Below are positions 1 to 8,758 of a stretch of DNA of 64,000 nt, piece by piece. Numbering within the stretch: position 1 is the stretch's first letter; each line of letters opens with the position of its first letter. The notes beneath the pieces were generated by a model, which worked only from the letters and a program-made list of their open reading frames with translations, made no database searches and was not told where the DNA came from. The DNA comes from a virus (lineage: Duplodnaviria > Caudoviricetes): the IMG/VR virus record IMGVR_UViG_3300021440_000022, positions 382 to 64,381 of that record; one strand, given 5' to 3'. The translations under genes and the position numbers were made by a program.

Positions 1-3000
1 GCGCCAGGGCCTCGCGTTGCTCCGGCGTGTGGCGGTCCACGCTCAGGCTCGCGTCGTTGCCGGCTGGCGCGGTGGCGGCGCTTTGGCTGGTGGCCTGGCT
101 GCTTGCCTGGCTGCTGGAGTACTCCTTCATCGCCTGCACGACGGCATCGCGCGCGGCCATTACGTCGCTCAGGTACTTGTCGGTGCCGTACGGGCGCTCG
201 TTGCGCAGGCGCTCCAGCACGCCGTTGAGGAAGTCGCGCACGGCGCCGAGCACGCGCTGGAACAGGCCCGGTCGGCCCTCCTGCAGGCCGCGCCAGAACG
301 CGGGATCGGTGAAGTTGTCGCCGACGATGTCAGCCACCAGTTCCTCGCGGACCGTCTGCGCGCTTGGGACGGTCAGCGCGGCGTTGTTGTAGGTCTTGGC
401 GATCTCCCTGAAGTGCTCACCAGGGTCCTTGATGAGCGCATCCAGCCGCTCAGCGAGTCGGTCGTACAACTCCGGCTTGTCTCTGCGCATCTGGTGCAGC
501 AGCTCGTGCCCGAGCACGGACATGACCGGCCGCTTCGTGCCGGCGTTCATGAACAACAAGTCGGGCCGGCTAGACAGGGCCACACCGTTGATTCTGGCGG
601 TTCCACCTCCCTCCGACGTGAACAGCACCACGCGCTTTTTGAAGAGGGCACGCATCATCGCCACGGCCGCGAAACGTTCCTGCTCGGCTGCAGACGCACC
701 CTTCTCGATCCGCGTGATAGCCGGCGCCGCCGTCAGCGTGAACCGCCGCTCCTTGCCACCGGAAAGTTTTCGCTCCAGGTAGGCCACGGCCTCAACGTCG
801 GCAGCGCTGGCCTGGCCGCCGGCCACTGCTGCGGCTGCATCACGGCCCAGGTCAAGCTGGGCGTCCGGGTACTTCTCCGCGAGCTTTGCCAGGTGCTCGG
901 CGCGGATGAAGAAGCCGCCGTCCTTCTTGAAGGTGTACTCGTCCACCTCCTTGGCCTGAGCCAGCGTCAGGTCCTTGCGGACCACGCCCTTCAGCAGCTT
1001 TCCCTTCTGGGTGGTGTGCTCCACCAGCACGGCACCGGTGGCGGCGGCCAGCGCTTCGCCCTGCTGTGTGGCCGCAGCCTTCTCGGCTTTGGCCGCTGAC
1101 CTCGGCGCAGGCGCGGGAGCGGCCGGCGCTTGCGCCTCTTTGCCGGTCTGGACGCCTGCGCGCGGCTTCAGCTCCAGGCCCTCCATGCGGTCAAACAGTT
1201 CGTTGATGTCCTTGGCGTCGGTGTAGTCGCGGTTTATCTGCTGCGGCGGCTGCTCGTCCTTCTTCGTCTTCTCGATCACGACGACGCGCGTCATCACCTG
1301 CGTGCCGGCGCGCTCGAACGTCACGGCCGGCAGCTTGATGTCCGCCACCAGGTGCAGGCCCTCGGCCGGCCGCACGGACTTTGTGCGAGGTCCCGTGGGG
1401 TTGACCTCTGTGATCGACTGCACCGTGACCGTGGTGTCGTAGTTGTAGCCCGGGGCCCGAACCATTACGACGTCGCCCCGTTCAGCGCCGACTGGCTTCC
1501 CGACCACGCGCGCCTCCGGCTCCCAGGCCGCACTGGTCTTCAGCGTGTCGCCGCGGTAGACCGGCCCCAGGGTCGGGTGCTCGAACAGCGGCTTCAGCGG
1601 CCTCTGCTCCTCCTCGTAGAACCACTTGTCGAACTTCTTGTCGGCGGCCGGGCCCGTCGGGATCAATGCCACGATACGGCCGCCCTCGCGCAGGTGCTGC
1701 TCGGCTGCCTTCGCCAGGTGGTCGATCGCGGTCCGGCCGGCGGTGCCGAAAGGCGGGTTCATGGCGATGCCGTCGTACTTGTTGACGACGTTCAGGTCCT
1801 CGAAGTCACCGCGGATGATCTTGCCGTCGAAGACCATGGCCAGGCGCGAGCCCAGGGTGTTGCTGGGCTCTACGGCCGTGCGGTTGGCTGTCTCCGGGAA
1901 CCAGCGGGCAATGGCGCCGTGGCCGGCGCTTGGCTCCAGCGCGTCCTCGCCACCGCGCAGGTCCAGCATCTGCACCATCTTCAGGCCGACGGGCTCGGGC
2001 GTGGCGAAGTAGTCGGTGCCCTCCTTCGCCTTGGTCTTGGCCGTCTTCTTGGCCGTGCCGAAGTAGAACGCCTTCGCGCGGTCGTACTCGGTCACGGCCT
2101 CGTTGGCGAGCCGGTCACGCTCCTTGCCGCCGGTGCCCTCGCCTTCGTGGCCGGCGGGGAAGTCGCCGCTCTCCTCGAAGCCGGCGATGAACGCGTCCTT
2201 GAGCGCGCGCGCGAGCTCGCCGGTGGCCAGGTTCTCGGCGGCGCTGGCGCGCTCGGCGATCGTCTGCGCGAACGCCCACCGCTCCCAGTTCGTGCCGGTG
2301 TTGAGGTAGCGGAAGATGGCGTTGCTGACCTGGCCCGTGCGGTAGATGCGCCCTTCCTGCTGGATGCTCATCGTCGGCTGCGTCGGCAGCCCCAGGTTGA
2401 ACAGCACCCGCTGGTGCTTGCCGGTGGTGTCGTGGCCGCTCCAGCCCTTGTTCTTGGCCGACTGCACGAGCGCAACCTGCGGGCCGACGTCGTCGTCGTT
2501 GAAGCGCTTGTACCTGGCCAGCAGGTCCGGCTTCTTCTCGTCGCCGTTGATGAGCAAGACGCCAGGGAACTCGCGCTTGAACCTGGTGATTGGCGACACC
2601 AGTTCGGCCAGCAGGCGGTCGCCGGCGAGGTTTGGAAATGCGTTCCTGAACTCCGCGGCGGCGGCGTTGCGGGCCTCCAGCACGGCCTTGTACTTGTCGA
2701 ACCCCTCCTCGTCCATGTGATCTGGGCGCCTCAGTGGCGCATCGATCTGGGCGAAGGCGAAAGGGTTGCGCGAGCCGCCCTTCTTGAAGTCGTGGAAGAC
2801 CACCACCTTGCGGCCGATGGCCATGTGGTCGCGCACGTGCTGGATCACCTCCTTGGCCTTGATCGCCTCCAGCAGGTACCGGCGCACCAGGTGCCCGGTC
2901 TTGCCGAACAACTGGTCGTTCAGTTCGGCCTCGATGAAGGCCCAGCCGTCCACCGCATCCTCCTTGTCCTTCTTCTCGATCCTGGATGTCTTGGCCTGGT

Positions 3001-6000
3001 CGCGGATCCACTCGATCGCGCGGTCAATCTCGTTGCCCACCGCCGACTCGGCAAGGATGAAGCGGCGGTCGTAGTCGGCATCGACGTCGAGCATGCGCCC
3101 AGACAGCACGCCCTGCTTCTTCAGCCAGCCGTTGAACTGGCGCTGCAGCAGGCCTCGGTCAACCTTCGAGTCCGGCTCCGTGAGCTTGCCATAGCGCATG
3201 CGGTAACCGAAGTGCTGCATGAAGAACTTCTCGCGGGCGCCGCCCTCGTTGTAGCCTGGGCTCGCCTGCTCTTTCGCGCCAGCCCCGTCCGGGTCGTAGT
3301 CGAAGAGGTAGCCGTCGGCCCAGTCCACCGTCTTCTCGTAGGCGAACGGCGTTGCCGACAGGCCTGCCACGCGCGTGCGCTTCTCGCCCTGCCTGGCCGC
3401 CACATCTTCCTCGACGCGTTTGCGGGCCTCTTTCAGTTTCTTGTTCAGCGGCTCGTAGCGCTGGCGCAGCGCCTCGATCTGGGCGTCCAGATTCTTCCTC
3501 TGCTCGGCCCCGGTTCCGAGCCGATCCTTCTCAAGCTTGGCGATCTGGTCCGACAGGTCGCGGCGCGTGTTCACGTCGTCGCGGTTGAGCATGGCGAAGC
3601 GGTCGCTGACGCCGCGCGGGTGCAGCGTGATCGCCCGCAGCGCGTCCAGCGCCTTGGTCTGCTTGCCGTCGGCCGACTGCATCAGCATGTGCACTTCGTC
3701 CGGCACCACCAGGTCCCAGGAGCGGCCGGCCAGGGCATCGTTCTCGCCCAGGTTCGCGTAGGTCGTGATCGTCACGCCGCGGCCGGCATCCTTCGTGTCC
3801 GCCAGCGCCTTGATGTCGAGCCCCAACGACGTCCCCGACTCGATCCAGTCGGCCATGATCTTGGCATCCGGCACGACGATCAGGACGTCACGCTTGCCGG
3901 CTCGGACGAAGCGCTTGACGATGCCGAGTCCGCTGAAGGTCTTGCCGGTCCCCGTCCCGTTTGTAAACAGCATGCCGTAGCCGCCTGGCTTCGAGAACCG
4001 CTGCTCGGCCTTGAACACGTCGTCCTGCTGGCCTGGTTGCAGGTATGGCAACGTCGCCCGGATGTTGTCGATCCCGGGCTCCTGCTTCACCGATTCGGCG
4101 GCGCGCTGGGCTGCTCGCTTTTCCGTAGCACTGGCCCACGCAGCAGTAGGCCGCGCAGCCGGTCCTGCTGGCCTGGGGTCAGGCTGAACTCCCGGGATGC
4201 CAGGATCGTCGCTTCGCTCACCGTCGTCAGTTCCGGCATCGAAGAGCGAAGGCTCTGCCGCCCGGCCGCTTCCACGTAGCGGCTGATCGCCAAGTTCTCG
4301 AAGAGGAGAGGCGCCACCAGTAGGTACGCCCGCGTTGTCCGGGCGTCCGCGCCGAGCGCTTCCAGTTCGTTTTCCATCGGTCTGAGGGCCTTCACCAAGT
4401 CCTCGGCCTGAAAGAGCTTCTCCCACCTCTCGCTCGACATTTCCTGCGTCGCCGCGATCTCGTTCCACACCGGTGTCGGCGTCTCGTACATTGCCCTGCT
4501 CCTCTGCGGCCGCAGCCGTCTCGTCCAGCTTGCCAAGTGGCGTCATGTCGGTCTGGAGCGCCGCAGCGCGGGGGTCGTAGTAGACCGCCGCATACCAGCT
4601 CTTCAGGTATGGGCGCACCACCTCGCCCAAGTCATCGATCATTGCCTTCGCGTAGGCAGCGAACGTGCGCGCACCCTTCTCAATGTGGTAGCCGGTCAGC
4701 GTGATGCCGGCCTGGAACACCTCCGGGTCCAGCGCCCCGCCTTGGCCCTTCTTCGTGCCTGGCCGGCCTGGCTGCTCCAGCTTCTTGCGCAGCAGCGCCC
4801 GGGCCCGCTCGGCGGCGTCCTCGGTGAAGATCGTGTTCTTGCTGACTTCCTGTTTTCCCGACTCTTTTGTGGGCGGTGGTGCCGGCGGAACAGCTTCGGC
4901 CGCCGCTGGTGCCAGTGCTGCCGGCGCAGCTTCGATGCCAAGGTCCCGTTGCGTCAGCCCAAGCTTCTCCATCATTGGCGCCAGCAGGCTCACCGGCTTG
5001 TCGCCCAACAGCACCGCACCTATGGCGTCGGCAATGATCTCGTCTGGCTTCCTGGCGTGCCGCCGAAACCGATCATTGGCGTGGTTGTGCACGCCCGGCC
5101 TGAACTCGCGCGAGGCAGCTACCAGGTCGTCCCAGTTGGAGATGTAGCGCTGCACCTCGCTCTTCGGGAACCCGCGGAACCCCAACTGGCGCTTTTTCAT
5201 CACCACGTGGCCAAGCTCGTGAGCGAAGACATGTGCCTTTGACACGTCGCGCTGGCTATCAACGTCGCCGTCAGGGATCGTCACCATGTCGCCGGTGGCG
5301 TGCCAACCGCCTGCACTCTCTGTGACGCTCACTCCGAGGGATTTCGCGACGGCCATCAGCCGCTCGATCCTTGCCCGGCCGGCAGACTGCGCCACCGGCT
5401 CAGCGGTCGGCGCTACCCCAGCGGCTTGTACACCGGCGCCGGTGGCAGTGGGTACTCCCGGCCTGGCGGCTGGGATGCTTGGTGCTGGCGCTGGCGCTTC
5501 AACTGGCGCGGCTTCTGCTGCTGGTGGGGCTGCATCGGTGGGCTGACCTTTCGCTTCGGTGGTGGTTGGCTTGGCCGTCTCGGCCGGGAAGAACTTCTGG
5601 CGCGGGCCCAGGGCGCGAGCGGCCTTGACCGCAGTCAGCGCTTCTTCGGTGCTGGCCCCGGCCGGCACCCGCACGGGTTCCCCACTGTCATAGTCCAGCA
5701 GCTCGTGGCCTTCCAGCCACGGCGTGTGCGTCCCGTCTGGGTTCGTGCGCAGCTCCAGCGGCACCGCCTGCTTCGGCGTAATGCCTACCCGGGCGATCAC
5801 GCGAGTGGCGTCAGCGCCTCTTCCACCGACCAGCCGAGTTCCAGCCGCTGTCGAATCGTTGACGGAACCATCCCGAGTTCGCGTGCCCACCTTTTCAGTG
5901 GTTGCGACCGCCCCTGGTGTTCCAGCATTCTGTGCTTGCTGCCGGGCAGCATCTTGCCGACCAGCAGGATCTTCTCTGCCGGCAAACCTCGGTTCATCCG

Positions 6001-8758
6001 TGCGTACAGCGTCGTTGCCCGCACCCCCAGTTCGCGAGACCACTCGGCCAGAGTCTGCGTCTTGCCGTTGTACTCCAGGAGCCTGACGAACCCCGGCCGG
6101 TTCTGCGACTGCTGCTCCTTTGTCGCCCACCGGACGTTGCCCGGCTGATACCCCAGACAGCCCTTTATCCGGTCCACTGAGTGCTGCGGCGTCGGCTTGG
6201 GGCCCAGTTCCTCCAGGAACAGCAGAAAGTCGGCCTCCCACTCCGGGCACATCTTGATCCCCTTCGCGCCGTACTCCGGGTAGTCGCGGCAATTCGGGTC
6301 GTTGCACCGACGTCGCGCGTGCTGCCACGCTGTCCACTCCGGGCTTCTGGTCATTCTGTGTTTCGTCATGCCCCTTATTGTAGGAGTCGCTGGTAGCGCT
6401 CGGGAACTCGCGAACCAATGGGAGTAGCTTCGTGATCGGAGCATCAAGGCGAATTACCGATACCGGTTCACCATCGTCAAGTTTCGCGAGCCACTGGTGA
6501 TGGCCGTCAAGCACATAGCCATCGGACGAAACAAGGATAGATCGATTGGTGTCTGTGAACCCCTTGGCCTGAGCCACCTTGGCAGGTGAGAACTCGGCCT
6601 GTGTCGGTTTTAGGTCTTCGGCCGGCACGGCAGCCTCCGCAGCGTAGTCAACGCCACGAGCGCGCAGGAACTGCACCAGGGCGCTTCTATCGCCAGCCTT
6701 GATCTGTGGCATCTCGGCGCGCGGCACACCCTTCGTGCCGGTGTCTGGCTTGAACTCAGCCCAGTCGTTCTGGGGCGACGTGGCCGCGGCGTGGGCTGCC
6801 TCGTCGATGCCAGCAGCGGCAGGGGCCGGCGCAGGAACCTGGTCAGCCGGCTCGCTCAGGCCGCTGTAGTCGGGCTCGGCGGCAGCCGGTGTTCCAGTTT
6901 TTGCTGCCTCCGTCCCAGTTTCGGCCGCTTTCGTCTCGCCGGCCTGGGCCGCACGCTCCTCCGGCAGCACCACCGGCCCAGCTTCCAGCGAATCCAGCAC
7001 GTGCACGTCAACCGGCGCACCCACCAGGTCACGCTTCTGCAGGGCCTGCACGAACCGAGAGTAGAAGGGCCCGAGCTGGGCGGCCGGGATCCCCTCTGCC
7101 GCGGCCTTGGCCCGCGCCACCGCGCTCGGCGGGATGCCGTACTGGGCCGCCGTGTTCTCGAAAATCGCCGTCGTCTTCGAGCGCTGCGTCTTGGCGTCGT
7201 CCGACACCAGCGGCGGCTCCACGCGGAAACCGCGGGCGTTGGCAATGGCGTATGGATTGGCGCCCCACTTGTCCACTGCCATGCGCTCGGCCTGGGTCAG
7301 TCCGCTGCGCGCCACCGCAGCGTCTGCTTGGCGCATCGCGTCACGGCCCTGGACGATCGCCGCTGGACCGCCGCCCATCACCGCGGTCTGGCCGATGGTG
7401 ACCTTCAGCGTCTCGCCGGCCTGCTCAAGGTAGTCCTGCAGCGTCGCGTTGGGCGACTGAGCCGCCGGTCCGGCCTTGTCGGCCAGGAACTGAATCGCCG
7501 TGGTTAGTTGCTCGCCCGGGATCTCCTTGCGGATCAGTTCGCCGAATGTCTTGGCCATCTCGCCCGGCGGCAAGTCGCGCACAACGCCCTTCAGCAACTT
7601 GATCTGCTGCGTGAATCCGAAGCGCTCTCCAAGCACTTCCGCGGCACCCATGATCCCGGCTCGGGAAAGCGAGTCCTGCATGCTGAACCCGGAGTTCCTA
7701 CCGGTGTTGTACTCCGACAGGGCCGTCTGCGTGAACAGGGCGCGCATGGCGGGACCGCCGCCAAGCCCAACGACCAGCGTCGGCACGGATTGCCCGATGC
7801 TGTTCGTGACGTCGGCCACCAGCTTTTTGGTGCCCTGCATGTCCTGCATCGCACCGCTTTGAAACACGTCCCCTTCTTTTGAAGCGGCGCCAGCAATCCC
7901 GGCCACCGTGTCAAGGCCAGCGAGGTCTGCCGCCAGGCGAACCGCACCGAACAACGAATTGCTGACGCCCACGCTGGCGGTTACTGCGCCTCTGGCTACC
8001 GGGTTGTCCGTGAAGTCACGGAAGTTTGCGGCGGCCTCTTGCGTCGGACTGAGGGCGGTCAGGTACTGGGGCCCGCGCGCGTTTTGCTCACGGATCTTGC
8101 GCAGTTGCTTGAGCCGCTCCGGCTCGATGGAGCCTTCCTCAATCTGCGCGTCAGAGTACCCAGGTCGCGGCGGCACCTTGTCCATGAAGGCGCCAAATGT
8201 TTCAGGTCCTTTGACTGGCGCCCCGCCACGGCCGCCGATGTTCCAGCGCGGAGCCGCTTGTGATGACGGGGGCGCCGCATTCTGCTCCTGGTCCAATTTG
8301 GCGGCTTCAGAGTCATGCAGCCGCTGTGCGTACTCTGTGGCCGCCTCTGGGGTCTTGAAAACACCAAGGTGCCTGCCAGTCTTACGGTACTGGTCGATGG
8401 CCTCTTCGTCGCTCATTACGCGCCCGGCATCGCTCACGGTAGGCATCAGGACTTCGCGGCCGTCGATGTTCGCGCTGATCGACCGAACCGTGCTGGTAGA
8501 GCCGTCACCATTCTTGACGCGCGGCCGGTTCGACATGTCGATGTTGCCGGCCTCAAGCTGGTCAGACGCCAGCGACGGGTTGGTGACGCCGCGTCCCCCC
8601 GCGACACCCGACGGCCTGACGCCATCCGGAAGAGGCTTCCGTGCCTCGGCGGTGCGAAGTGCGTCCGTCTGCTGGCGCGCCACCCGAGCGATCACGTCGT
8701 CCGGGGTACCCTCCTCGAAGTCGAGGACCGTGCCGTCATACAGTTCTGCTTGTGGCAT
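1..8758 (-). CDS. Giant polyvalent virion/ejection protein (DarB-like), N-terminal >=2919 aa, runs off window start; ParB-like domain, two HExxH zincins, SF2 helicase, N6-adenine methyltransferase
   Basis: ATG at 8758 abuts the upstream TGA (8759-8761). Absent from the ORF track because no stop is reached; long plus-strand antisense shadow ORFs share its register. Motifs read by hand: VLDGHHQW (~6490-6515), AHELGH (~5210), GTGTGKT (~3940-3960), DEVH (~3690), SATP, QQEGRIYR, YFATPE, EPSAGHG, NPPF (~1750), GHELLH..EELVAD (~330-510). Confidence 0.9.
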   Translation of the reverse strand, partial: MPQAELYDGTVLDFEEGTPDDVIARVARQQTDALRTAEARKPLPDGVRPSGVAGGRGVTNPSLASDQLEAGNIDMSNRPRVKNGDGSTSTVRSISANIDGREVLMPTVSDAGRVMSDEEAIDQYRKTGRHLGVFKTPEAATEYAQRLHDSEAAKLDQEQNAAPPSSQAAPRWNIGGRGGAPVKGPETFGAFMDKVPPRPGYSDAQIEEGSIEPERLKQLRKIREQNARGPQYLTALSPTQEAAANFRDFTDNPVARGAVTASVGVSNSLFGAVRLAADLAGLDTVAGIAGAASKEGDVFQSGAMQDMQGTKKLVADVTNSIGQSVPTLVVGLGGGPAMRALFTQTALSEYNTGRNSGFSMQDSLSRAGIMGAAEVLGERFGFTQQIKLLKGVVRDLPPGEMAKTFGELIRKEIPGEQLTTAIQFLADKAGPAAQSPNATLQDYLEQAGETLKVTIGQTAVMGGGPAAIVQGRDAMRQADAAVARSGLTQAERMAVDKWGANPYAIANARGFRVEPPLVSDDAKTQRSKTTAIFENTAAQYGIPPSAVARAKAAAEGIPAAQLGPFYSRFVQALQKRDLVGAPVDVHVLDSLEAGPVVLPEERAAQAGETKAAETGTEAAKTGTPAAAEPDYSGLSEPADQVPAPAPAAAGIDEAAHAAATSPQNDWAEFKPDTGTKGVPRAEMPQIKAGDRSALVQFLRARGVDYAAEAAVPAEDLKPTQAEFSPAKVAQAKGFTDTNRSILVSSDGYVLDGHHQWLAKLDDGEPVSVIRLDAPITKLLPLVREFPSATSDSYNKGHDETQNDQKPGVDSVAARATSVQRPELPRLPGVRREGDQDVPGVGGRLSAVPGGTGPQADAAALSGPDKGLSGVSAGQRPVGDKGAAVAEPAGVRQAPGVQRQDADSGRVVSRTGGAGNDAVRTDEPRFAGREDPAGRQDAARQQAQNAGTPGAVATTEKVGTRTRDGSVNDSTAAGTRLVGGRGADATRVIARVGITPKQAVPLELRTNPDGTHTPWLEGHELLDYDSGEPVRVPAGASTEEALTAVKAARALGPRQKFFPAETAKPTTTEAKGQPTDAAPPAAEAAPVEAPAPAPSIPAARPGVPTATGAGVQAAGVAPTAEPVAQSAGRARIERLMAVAKSLGVSVTESAGGWHATGDMVTIPDGDVDSQRDVSKAHVFAHELGHVVMKKRQLGFRGFPKSEVQRYISNWDDLVAASREFRPGVHNHANDRFRRHARKPDEIIADAIGAVLLGDKPVSLLAPMMEKLGLTQRDLGIEAAPAALAPAAAEAVPPAPPPTKESGKQEVSKNTIFTEDAAERARALLRKKLEQPGRPGTKKGQGGALDPEVFQAGITLTGYHIEKGARTFAAYAKAMIDDLGEVVRPYLKSWYAAVYYDPRAAALQTDMTPLGKLDETAAAAEEQGNVRDADTGVERDRGDAGNVEREVGEALSGRGLGEGPQTDGKRTGSARRGRPDNAGVPTGGASPLRELGDQPLRGSGRAAEPSLFDAGTDDGERSDDPGIPGVQPDPRPAGPAARPTAAWASATEKRAAQRAAESVKQEPGIDNIRATLPYLQPGQQDDVFKAEQRFSKPGGYGMLFTNGTGTGKTFSGLGIVKRFVRAGKRDVLIVVPDAKIMADWIESGTSLGLDIKALADTKDAGRGVTITTYANLGENDALAGRSWDLVVPDEVHMLMQSADGKQTKALDALRAITLHPRGVSDRFAMLNRDDVNTRRDLSDQIAKLEKDRLGTGAEQRKNLDAQIEALRQRYEPLNKKLKEARKRVEEDVAARQGEKRTRVAGLSATPFAYEKTVDWADGYLFDYDPDGAGAKEQASPGYNEGGAREKFFMQHFGYRMRYGKLTEPDSKVDRGLLQRQFNGWLKKQGVLSGRMLDVDADYDRRFILAESAVGNEIDRAIEWIRDQAKTSRIEKKDKEDAVDGWAFIEAELNDQLFGKTGHLVRRYLLEAIKAKEVIQHVRDHMAIGRKVVVFHDFKKGGSRNPFAFAQIDAPLRRPDHMDEEGFDKYKAVLEARNAAAAEFRNAFPNLAGDRLLAELVSPITRFKREFPGVLLINGDEKKPDLLARYKRFNDDDVGPQVALVQSAKNKGWSGHDTTGKHQRVLFNLGLPTQPTMSIQQEGRIYRTGQVSNAIFRYLNTGTNWERWAFAQTIAERASAAENLATGELARALKDAFIAGFEESGDFPAGHEGEGTGGKERDRLANEAVTEYDRAKAFYFGTAKKTAKTKAKEGTDYFATPEPVGLKMVQMLDLRGGEDALEPSAGHGAIARWFPETANRTAVEPSNTLGSRLAMVFDGKIIRGDFEDLNVVNKYDGIAMNPPFGTAGRTAIDHLAKAAEQHLREGGRIVALIPTGPAADKKFDKWFYEEEQRPLKPLFEHPTLGPVYRGDTLKTSAAWEPEARVVGKPVGAERGDVVMVRAPGYNYDTTVTVQSITEVNPTGPRTKSVRPAEGLHLVADIKLPAVTFERAGTQVMTRVVVIEKTKKDEQPPQQINRDYTDAKDINELFDRMEGLELKPRAGVQTGKEAQAPAAPAPAPRSAAKAEKAAATQQGEALAAATGAVLVEHTTQKGKLLKGVVRKDLTLAQAKEVDEYTFKKDGGFFIRAEHLAKLAEKYPDAQLDLGRDAAAAVAGGQASAADVEAVAYLERKLSGGKERRFTLTAAPAITRIEKGASAAEQERFAAVAMMRALFKKRVVLFTSEGGGTARINGVALSSRPDLLFMNAGTKRPVMSVLGHELLHQMRRDKPELYDRLAERLDALIKDPGEHFREIAKTYNNAALTVPSAQTVREELVADIVGDNFTDPAFWRGLQEGRPGLFQRVLGAVRDFLNGVLERLRNERPYGTDKYLSDVMAARDAVVQAMKEYSSSQASSQATSQSAATAPAGNDASLSVDRHTPEQREALA
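4087..4491 (-). CDS. Nested (overprinted, +1 frame) 134-aa helical protein inside the giant gene
   Basis: GAGGAG-7nt-ATG; protein-like composition (MYETPTPVWNEIAATQEMSSERWEKLFQAEDL...). The host frame here is stop-free (checked codon by codon) but reads as an R/G/D-rich linker. Confidence 0.7.
   Translation of the reverse strand: MYETPTPVWNEIAATQEMSSERWEKLFQAEDLVKALRPMENELEALGADARTTRAYLLVAPLLFENLAISRYVEAAGRQSLRSSMPELTTVSEATILASREFSLTPGQQDRLRGLLLRGPVLRKSEQPSAPPNR
5797..6369 (-). CDS. Nested (overprinted, +1 frame) HNH-like homing endonuclease-family protein, 190 aa
   Basis: W..ARRRC..P...YPEYGAKGIKMCPEW..F..F...GPKP..HSVDRI....YQPGNVRWAT..QQSQNR plus two C-terminal 'G..TL.EW.RELG...T..R' HTH-like repeats; host frame checked stop-free across it. 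Confidence 0.85.
   Translation of the reverse strand: MTKHRMTRSPEWTAWQHARRRCNDPNCRDYPEYGAKGIKMCPEWEADFLLFLEELGPKPTPQHSVDRIKGCLGYQPGNVRWATKEQQSQNRPGFVRLLEYNGKTQTLAEWSRELGVRATTLYARMNRGLPAEKILLVGKMLPGSKHRMLEHQGRSQPLKRWARELGMVPSTIRQRLELGWSVEEALTPLA
6370..6406 (-). promoter_or_regulatory. Candidate internal sigma70 promoter for a leaderless transcript of the nested HNH gene
   Basis: TACAAT (6382-6377) lies 7 nt before the ATG; weak TTCCCG -35 with 18-nt spacer. Confidence 0.5.

Follow-up and report, generated by a model that had tools for sequence, protein, structure and literature searches.

In phage lambda, the small gene Rz1 lies wholly within the larger gene Rz, on the same strand and in the +1 frame, with a ribosome-binding site of its own, and the two products cooperate. 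Overlap of another kind occurs in hepadnaviruses, in which the disordered spacer of a multidomain enzyme, the polymerase, shares its bases with the folded protein of the surface gene. The DarB protein of phage P1, for its part, needs small accessory proteins (Hdf, DarA, DdrA, and others) for incorporation, and these are encoded by separate genes. Here we describe a small open reading frame (ORF) at 4491-4087 on the minus strand of a 64,000-nucleotide stretch of tailed-phage DNA (the window; bases 382-64381 of the 64,381-bp virus record IMGVR_UViG_3300021440_000022, which is estimated to be 94% complete, from a phage with a genome size of ~64 kb). Comparison with homologous loci demonstrates, as far as sequence can, that this ORF is a genuine protein-coding gene embedded in a giant DarB-like gene and that the DNA is dual-coding. 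Substitution patterns and modeling show that the nested frame holds the amino-acid constraint and encodes a protein that is predicted to be compact, with eight helices, and that belongs to a large unnamed family. The explanation that we favor overall, with a probability of roughly 80%, is that of a real embedded +1 gene with its own initiation; its product may be a detached partner of the giant protein, and its frame is probably the older of the two.

The likeness to Rz/Rz1 lies, at the level of sequence, in an embedded +1 gene on the same strand with its own initiation signals. The locus departs from that model in its host, a gene for a polyvalent virion protein with at least 2,919 codons, and in the overlapped part of the host protein, which is predicted to be a disordered tether and not a structured segment. 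The nested product is also unlike Rz1: it is no lipoprotein but looks like a cytoplasmic, helical protein, and its family is new; family searches found no sequence relation of the nested protein to Rz or Rz1. With the hepadnavirus overlap it shares a division of labor in which constraint falls on the folded protein and the spacer just stays open. However, the setting here is a dsDNA bacteriophage, and the nested gene has free-standing and fused relatives, whose existence suggests that it is older than the spacer. P1 DarB resembles our host protein as an anti-restriction-type protein with a helicase and, in our case, a putative methyltransferase, and by analogy we propose a comparable accessory role for the nested protein, although the P1 accessory genes are separate and the gene described here is embedded. 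No P1 record was among the matches when the nested ORF was compared by tblastn with 50,697 phage records (E ≤ 0.01).

Polyvalent proteins, giant polypeptides that each carry many domains, are encoded by phages and by conjugative elements (Iyer et al. 2017, PMC5512222). In the part of that article reached by a term search, "overlapping," "frameshift," and "linker" have 0 occurrences, and there is no passage on out-of-frame embedded genes. Our host gene is likewise multidomain, and "LPD38 domain-containing protein" and "DarB-like antirestriction" are the names given to its relatives in annotations, but the nested domain is not among the families detected. A search of the literature, with subscription journals and supplements outside its scope, found no gene embedded in DarB-like or polyvalent genes. 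What is new here relative to known embedded genes is the giant polyvalent host, the linker as the gene's shadow, and the unnamed family.

The giant gene and the reading frame within it

The giant gene runs from 8758 to 2 on the minus strand, with at least 2,919 codons and a 3' end beyond the window. A Pfam ResIII match at residues 1591-1695 of its product (2.5e-07; 31.2 bits against a cutoff of 22.5) marks the start of the helicase module at 3674-3988 (minus). Among PHROG families, the protein matches phrog_10691 (E = 0), phrog_10089, "DarB-like antirestriction" (5.4e-27), and DNA methyltransferase families (2.9e-23 to 5.1e-17); the Pfam MTS family scores 19.6 bits, below its cutoff of 23. The modules recognized in the polypeptide are ParB-like, HExxH, helicase, and a putative methyltransferase, and homologous giant coding sequences (CDSs) carry the annotation "DarB-like antirestriction." By these matches, the host gene is assigned to the DarB-like or polyvalent virion protein class, probably of the helicase-plus-methyltransferase type.

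The nested ORF begins with an ATG at 4491-4489 and has 134 codons, ending with a TGA at 4089-4087. A Shine-Dalgarno (SD)-like GAGGAG, read directly at 4504-4499 (minus), stands 7 nt 5' of the ATG, with CAGGGCA as the spacer. The start lies at base 4,267 of the giant ORF, which modulo 3 is 1 and thus defines the +1 frame, and both ends of the nested ORF fall within the giant ORF, on the same strand and in the other frame. From stop to stop, the open stretch around it has 151 codons, or 149 from a TTG at 4536, and in the window 17 nested-frame codons are open 5' of the ATG. The ORF covers giant residues 1423-1558 and ends 33 residues short of the ResIII match. An initial annotation of the window, made from its letters, had called a GAGGAG-7 nt-ATG signal opening a 134-residue ORF in the +1 register just before a helicase domain, and it had described the giant frame there as open but low in complexity and the nested product as globular and helical; all of this holds, the structural and compositional points on the evidence given below.

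The length of the ORF is by itself within what chance allows in a gene with 66% guanine-plus-cytosine (GC) content. Other open stretches in the +1 frame of the same gene reach 91 to 218 codons, and the nested frame stays open in 15.7% of synonymous shuffles of the giant frame (P = 0.157). As length alone is not significant, the case for a gene rests on other evidence. Gene-wide, GC at the three codon positions of the giant frame is 0.70/0.49/0.80, and at ~4560-4160 it becomes 0.83-0.85/0.60-0.68/0.43-0.50; read in the nested frame, the same region gives 0.64/0.52/0.83, the usual coding pattern. Among the other +1 stretches of at least 90 codons in the giant gene, only 6453-5797 has a coding-like pattern of this kind. 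This flip in codon-position GC, together with the conservation in relatives, is far beyond chance.

An antisense ORF of 1,049 codons lies opposite the giant gene on the plus strand (1130-4279). An ORF of this kind is expected where third positions are rich in G and C in a high-GC gene, so it is no evidence of a gene.

Conservation of the arrangement

In 54 of 59 loci examined, the window included, the nested protein or its homologue is encoded in the +1 frame of a giant ORF, across GC contents of 38-69%. The tblastn search returned eight records that represent six distinct phages, at 29-36% identity and E values of 1e-10 to 3e-12: Pseudomonas phage Skulduggery, Serratia phage Parlo, Ruegeria phage 45A6, Klebsiella phage vB_KpnP_ZX1, Vibrio phage D274, and Vibrio phage 1.232.O. 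In 6/6, the offset of the match from the start of the annotated giant CDS (4255, 4438, 4765, 4735, 2935, and 2923) is 1 modulo 3, and the giant frame has no stop in the 3.3 kb around the match. All six nested ORFs also have an ATG at the conserved N terminus M-[YFH]-Q-[VA]-P..WN.I, an SD-like motif 6-9 nt 5' of it, and a stop just past the conserved region.

A pattern scan of viral contigs added 36 loci. The pattern used for contigs and genomes includes the initial Met, and the six phage loci and a plasmid locus are free of this bias. Taking the window, phages, and contigs together (GC 0.38-0.69), 43/43 loci have an ATG-initiated ORF of 119-143 codons in the +1 frame of a host frame that is open for at least 1,107 codons. 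The plasmid locus, on a 57.7-kb Comamonas plasmid, has the same arrangement at an offset of 4522 under a CDS annotated "LPD38 domain-containing protein." Counting plasmid and bacterial loci, the latter from genomes and metagenome-assembled genomes (MAGs), 11 of 16 have it, with giant frames of at least 1,172 codons; among 401 sampled genomes of one bacterial order, three had a match. The remaining five loci are a fragmented giant gene (L046), a decayed copy (L059), two intact free-standing copies (L047 and L049), and L055, in which a 328-codon host ORF runs through the nested gene in the same relative frame.

The last of these comes from a Thermodesulfobacteriota MAG, with the host at 4553-5539 and the nested gene at 5001-5366. 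The N-terminal part of the host matches giant residues 1297-1430, and the host stops ~170 nt past the nested gene. L055 may be an intermediate arrangement.

The locus in the window is also supported by independent contigs. Contigs from a second sample are identical to it over 4273-4847 and 3943-4093 and so take in both ends of the ORF, and a ~91% identical contig from another run covers the whole ORF. That run, X17, is labeled RNA-Seq but is probably DNA and was not used as evidence of expression, and no RNA run was listed as carrying the locus. At 4264-4271, within the overlap, the X17 contig has a single-nucleotide insertion and, 7 nt away, a single-nucleotide deletion, which together restore both frames after two codons.

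In 7/7 annotated records (the six phage genomes and the plasmid), the giant CDS is the sole annotation over the match. Standard gene callers admit a single frame at each locus, and with only the giant CDS annotated, a family of hundreds of clusters has stayed without a name.

Initiation signals and selection in the overlap

Of 49 distinct loci, 42 have a core SD (GGAG, GAGG, or AGGA at -16 to -4) before the nested ATG; for control ATGs within these loci, the figure is 419 of 4,895 (8.6%). Many loci have a nested-frame stop 0-4 codons before the ATG: it directly abuts the ATG in L020, L022, L023, L025, L029, L031, L042, and L045 and lies 1-4 codons upstream in L002, L004, L005, L006, L021, L032, L052, and L058. 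These signals argue that the small protein would be made by internal initiation at GAGGAG-N7-ATG on the giant mRNA and not by frameshifting.

Substitutions among 37 distinct nested DNA sequences were counted by nested codon position. At positions 1, 2, and 3, the closest pairs (n = 7) have 46, 58, and 79 substitutions, pairs of middle divergence (n = 52) have 1809, 1497, and 2634, and distant pairs (n = 607) have 37106, 30704, and 41541; the most variable is nested position 3, which is giant position 1. Ratios of nonsynonymous to synonymous substitution (dN/dS) were calculated by the method of Nei and Gojobori (NG86) for 27 pairs of 3-30% nucleotide divergence and are given as medians over pairs that are not independent. 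In the overlap, dN/dS is 1.62 for the giant frame and 0.32 for the nested +1 frame; over the 250 helicase codons downstream the order is reversed, with 0.24 for the giant frame and 1.23 for the +1 frame. Amino-acid constraint thus switches frame in the overlap and acts on the nested frame, not on the residues of the linker.

By our own arithmetic on an incomplete table, the substitutions listed for the ~91% identical contig within the core (4140-4491) fall 15 times at nested position 3, seven times at position 2, and twice at position 1. In the tail at 4094-4130, six of seven listed substitutions are at nested position 2, which is giant position 3; as these favor giant position 3, constraint is back on the giant frame near 4135.

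That the giant frame is open across the overlap was assessed with synonymous codon shuffles within each nested ORF, keeping the nested protein and its own codons fixed, a null that is conservative because codon choice has already been shaped by the overlap. Under it, the chance of a stop-free giant frame has a median of 0.25 per locus and is 0.068 for the window. The giant frame is stop-free in all loci, at a joint chance of 10^-19.8 over 22 clusters with less than 60% identity, if these are independent. The giant frame is therefore kept stop-free. For the initial annotation, the checks to be made were matches in the +1 frame of other DarB-like genes with synonymous variation in the nested frame, and its claim would have fallen had homologous linkers carried +1-frame stops or lacked the ribosome-binding site; what the comparison brought out was +1-frame matches in all six phages, an excess of changes at nested position 3 with the low nested dN/dS, an open frame, and an ATG and SD kept in most loci.

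Linker and nested protein

Over the overlap, the giant frame is stop-free and reads ...VERDRGDAGNVEREVGEALSGRG..., a composition in which G, R, D, A, E, and P make up 0.70 of residues, against 0.52 in the whole giant protein. Hydrophobic residues account for 0.12 there, against 0.24 in the whole giant protein and 0.30 in the nested product. An AlphaFold2 (AF2) run on giant residues 1300-1720 with 32 aligned relatives gave a folded helical domain at residues 1313-1418, with a predicted local distance difference test score (pLDDT) of ~90, followed by a stretch at residues 1419-1538 (model residues 120-239) with a pLDDT of 32-41 and no secondary structure. Both flanks are folded, and from residue 1538 the protein is folded again and continues into the helicase. 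Across the nested core, the giant-frame product is thus predicted to be a disordered stretch of ~120 residues. This G/R/D/A/E-rich linker (4145-4504, minus) in the models joins the upstream helical domain to the predicted helicase-methyltransferase module. The upstream domain, which we call type A (4505-4822, minus; giant residues ~1313-1418; motifs GYHIEKGAR and PYLKSWY; alignment A4), has no Pfam family match.

The nested protein, in contrast to the linker with which it shares its bases, is modeled with confidence. With 54 aligned homologues, AF2 gave a pLDDT of 88.3 and a predicted template modeling score (pTM) of 0.82, with eight helices in residues 6-118 and a tail at 124-131 of pLDDT <50. 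Alignments A1 and A2 and the model agree on a conserved folded core of residues ~1-120 (4132-4491, minus).

A profile search of 1.84 billion representatives returned 559 cluster representatives at E ≤ 1e-3, 446 at ≤1e-10, and 77 at ≤1e-30. The best 150 of the 559 include 118 with no more than 152 residues, most matching from residue 1, and 32 that are longer, at 169-413 residues; none of these 150 exceeds 413 residues, and among the matches listed there is no giant protein with the nested domain in frame. None of 23 proteins retrieved is informatively named, three being just "hypothetical protein." Searches of the nested protein and 20 longer relatives against Pfam, PHROGs, NCBIfam, and PADLOC found no family above noise. 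The best E value of the nested protein in a PDB sequence profile search was 0.26. Foldseek searches with the model gave best E values of 1.7 (PDB) and 0.54 (BFVD), and VIA-align gave a best Z of 4.8, to a designed protein, with no convincing match by either; the ESM Atlas held no usable match. The family is unnamed and without a family or fold match, although a missing match is no proof of a new fold.

The suggestion of the initial annotation that R/G/D-rich linkers may be shadows of hidden genes applies to this linker, which is disordered in the model; for a second stretch of the same gene there is a hint in the composition. That second +1 open stretch, at 6453-5797 (minus), has 218 codons, or 216 from a TTG at 6447, and a coding-like GC of 0.60/0.50/0.78 at the three positions. 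It underlies a G/R/D/A/V-rich, low-complexity part of the giant protein at residues ~770-990, and against Pfam it gave HTH_8 and HTH_30 below threshold and no HNH. By its composition it is probably another embedded gene.

A 15-nt direct repeat, CCAGGCCAGCAGGAC (minus), occurs in two copies at 4022-4036 and 4162-4176, 140 nt apart. Both read P-G-Q-Q-D, one in the nested frame and the other in the giant frame, and the giant-frame copy sits at the start of the helicase module. The repeat could be due to chance or be a trace of recombination.

Free-standing and fused relatives

The longer relatives bear on what the nested protein might do. In P0042 and P0069, the nested domain is followed in one frame by a segment that is 54-55% identical to giant residues 1328-1412, that is, by the type A helical domain that in the window lies directly 5' of the nested gene. 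Other giants have a different helical domain, type B, as their upstream segment, and in P0099, P0135, and P0137 a type-B-like segment stands directly N-terminal to the nested domain, again in one frame. A tblastn comparison of the free-standing 413-residue P0135 with the giants L070 and L071 showed colinearity, with 46-50% identity to the giant frame over residues 45-120 of P0135 and 67% identity to the +1 frame over its residues 120-244, the two matches abutting. Searched for in viral contigs, P0135 gave no relative, and P0069 matched ordinary nested loci only. The initial annotation had guessed at a chaperone or inhibitor of the adjacent helicase-methyltransferase, for or against which these data do not speak; as a candidate partner of the nested protein, the architecture suggests first the helical domain just upstream. 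When the upstream domain (A4 12-112) was modeled in complex with the nested protein (A2 1-123), the score was 0.01 against a mark of 0.32, which is evidence neither way.

One locus, L067, encodes the one-frame form in 414 codons. The surrounding island (L067 1-7427 and 9767-14351) also encodes a tyrosine integrase and a VapE-like protein, and in it the gene is divergent from that of a 955-residue SNF2 helicase and close to that of a PLD-nuclease/ResIII protein that has an NgoFVII-type domain. By its content, the island resembles a mobile defense or counter-defense element.

The two free-standing copies in Burkholderiales MAGs (L047 5001-5375 and L049 1948-2322) are intact 124-codon homologues. 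Their neighbors are genes for an NmrA-like epimerase and an alpha/beta-hydrolase, with MurB further upstream. These copies lack an SD core, and neither a giant gene nor any similarity to the giant protein is found around them.

Discussion

The hidden protein may be a detached partner of the giant protein, because free-standing proteins hold both domains in one frame. More specifically, the small protein may be the detached second half of a two-domain module that docks on the upstream helical domain as an accessory subunit, a proposal drawn from the domain architectures to which we give even odds. In giant genes, the frame changes exactly at the junction of the two domains of the module, and the nested protein would reassociate noncovalently with the helical domain encoded immediately upstream in the giant gene. 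As an accessory subunit, it might help in assembly or packaging or else regulate the neighboring helicase, and encoding in cis would guarantee that the nested and giant proteins are coexpressed. As to which frame came first, the genome-typical composition of the nested frame and its free-standing and fused relatives lead us to favor, by a modest degree, the nested frame as the older and the linker as the overprinted one. More tentatively still, the giant gene may have been built by what could be called fusion through overprinting, in which a pre-existing small gene, for the second half of the two-domain module, is read in another frame and its shadow becomes a flexible tether. The tether would link neighboring modules into one injected polyprotein, and the small protein would still be made separately and dock back on the giant protein as a noncovalent subunit. 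This last idea is speculative, and we rate it below the others.

The main rival is that the embedded gene is real but its product acts independently, for example as a cytoplasmic anti-defense or regulatory protein lodged in a linker that tolerates it. This possibility deserves to be kept in view, as L047 and L049 are intact copies that sit among housekeeping genes and have no giant gene near them, C-terminal extensions vary among the representatives, and one free-standing relative sits in the integrase/VapE-like island beside SNF2 and PLD-nuclease/helicase genes. We nevertheless hold it to be the less probable account, since in giants the gene has one fixed position, with the type A or type B helical domain directly before it and the helicase after it, and there are free-standing proteins in which that helical domain and this one are joined in a single frame, in either order. 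The colinearity of P0135 with a giant-frame domain and then a +1-frame domain with abutting matches, and the 17 nested-frame codons that are open 5' of the ATG in the window, would also fit a programmed +1 ribosomal frameshift, which would yield a truncated fusion of the N-terminal ~1,420 residues with the nested domain; SD-like sequences can stimulate frameshifting. Yet the ATG is conserved, as is its distance from the SD, the giant frame shows neither a stop nor another pause signal at this point, and nested-frame stops stand 0-4 codons before the ATG in many loci; because these stops abut or closely precede the ATG, a frameshift fusion cannot be the general mechanism, and we regard it as very improbable. 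A programmed frameshift product, for which the frame should be open upstream and lack a start of its own, was accordingly rejected as a candidate, given the stops and the conserved ATG and SD.

Less probable again is a chance ORF of a gene with 66% GC, or a silent fossil absorbed into the giant gene. The unremarkable ORF length, the +1 stretches of up to 218 codons, and the shuffle P of 0.157 are what such an origin would give, but it would hardly keep the ATG, SD, and stop at 38-69% GC, a nested dN/dS of 0.32 that is reversed in the flank, a confident fold, and 559 cluster representatives. An error of assembly or sequencing, in which two compensating frameshifts displace an in-frame domain, comes to mind because the record is a metagenomic assembly. 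It has next to nothing in its favor beyond that: the same frame relation is found in six isolated phages, a complete plasmid, and dozens of independent contigs, the second-sample contigs are identical over 4273-4847 and 3943-4093, and no listed representative has the domain inside a giant protein.

Several points weigh against our preferred explanation of an embedded gene for a detached partner. Support for the gene consists of sequence comparison and a predicted fold. The universal ATG is partly built in, since the scan pattern contains the initial M, and a core SD is absent in 7 of the 49 distinct loci. In the closest pairs, purifying selection is weaker and dN/dS noisier, at 0.18-0.83, with some individual pairs as high as 0.6-0.8, and locus pairs are phylogenetically nonindependent. 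The embedded gene is not universal in DarB-like giants, because Sinorhizobium phage PBC5 and Ralstonia phage AhaGv have the shared upstream domain but, searched with the nested-family profile (A2), no homologue within 2.5 kb of it. For the partner role, the evidence comes from five fused cluster representatives and one independent locus pair, and a nested-type protein can persist without the proposed partner, because L047 and L049 stand alone among housekeeping genes.

In PBC5 (L060 3044-4674), the DarB-like gene is annotated as two CDSs with a 1.6-kb unannotated gap between them, and the nested-family profile found nothing in that gap.

The locus provides a concrete instance, in dsDNA phages, of a long embedded gene that is out of frame with its host, and cultured relatives, Skulduggery (Pseudomonas fluorescens SBW25) and Parlo (Serratia), make it open to direct testing. 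It illustrates how a second gene can leave a "disordered linker" as its by-product, which bears on the interpretation of linker composition, disorder predictions, and dN/dS above 1 in giant phage proteins. DarB-like injected anti-restriction proteins are poorly understood in how they act and assemble, and the locus suggests a component of them that has been missed. If fusion through overprinting is general, many "disordered linkers" of polyvalent proteins in phages and plasmids would be dual-coding, and their hidden products would be unrecognized parts of injected anti-defense machines.

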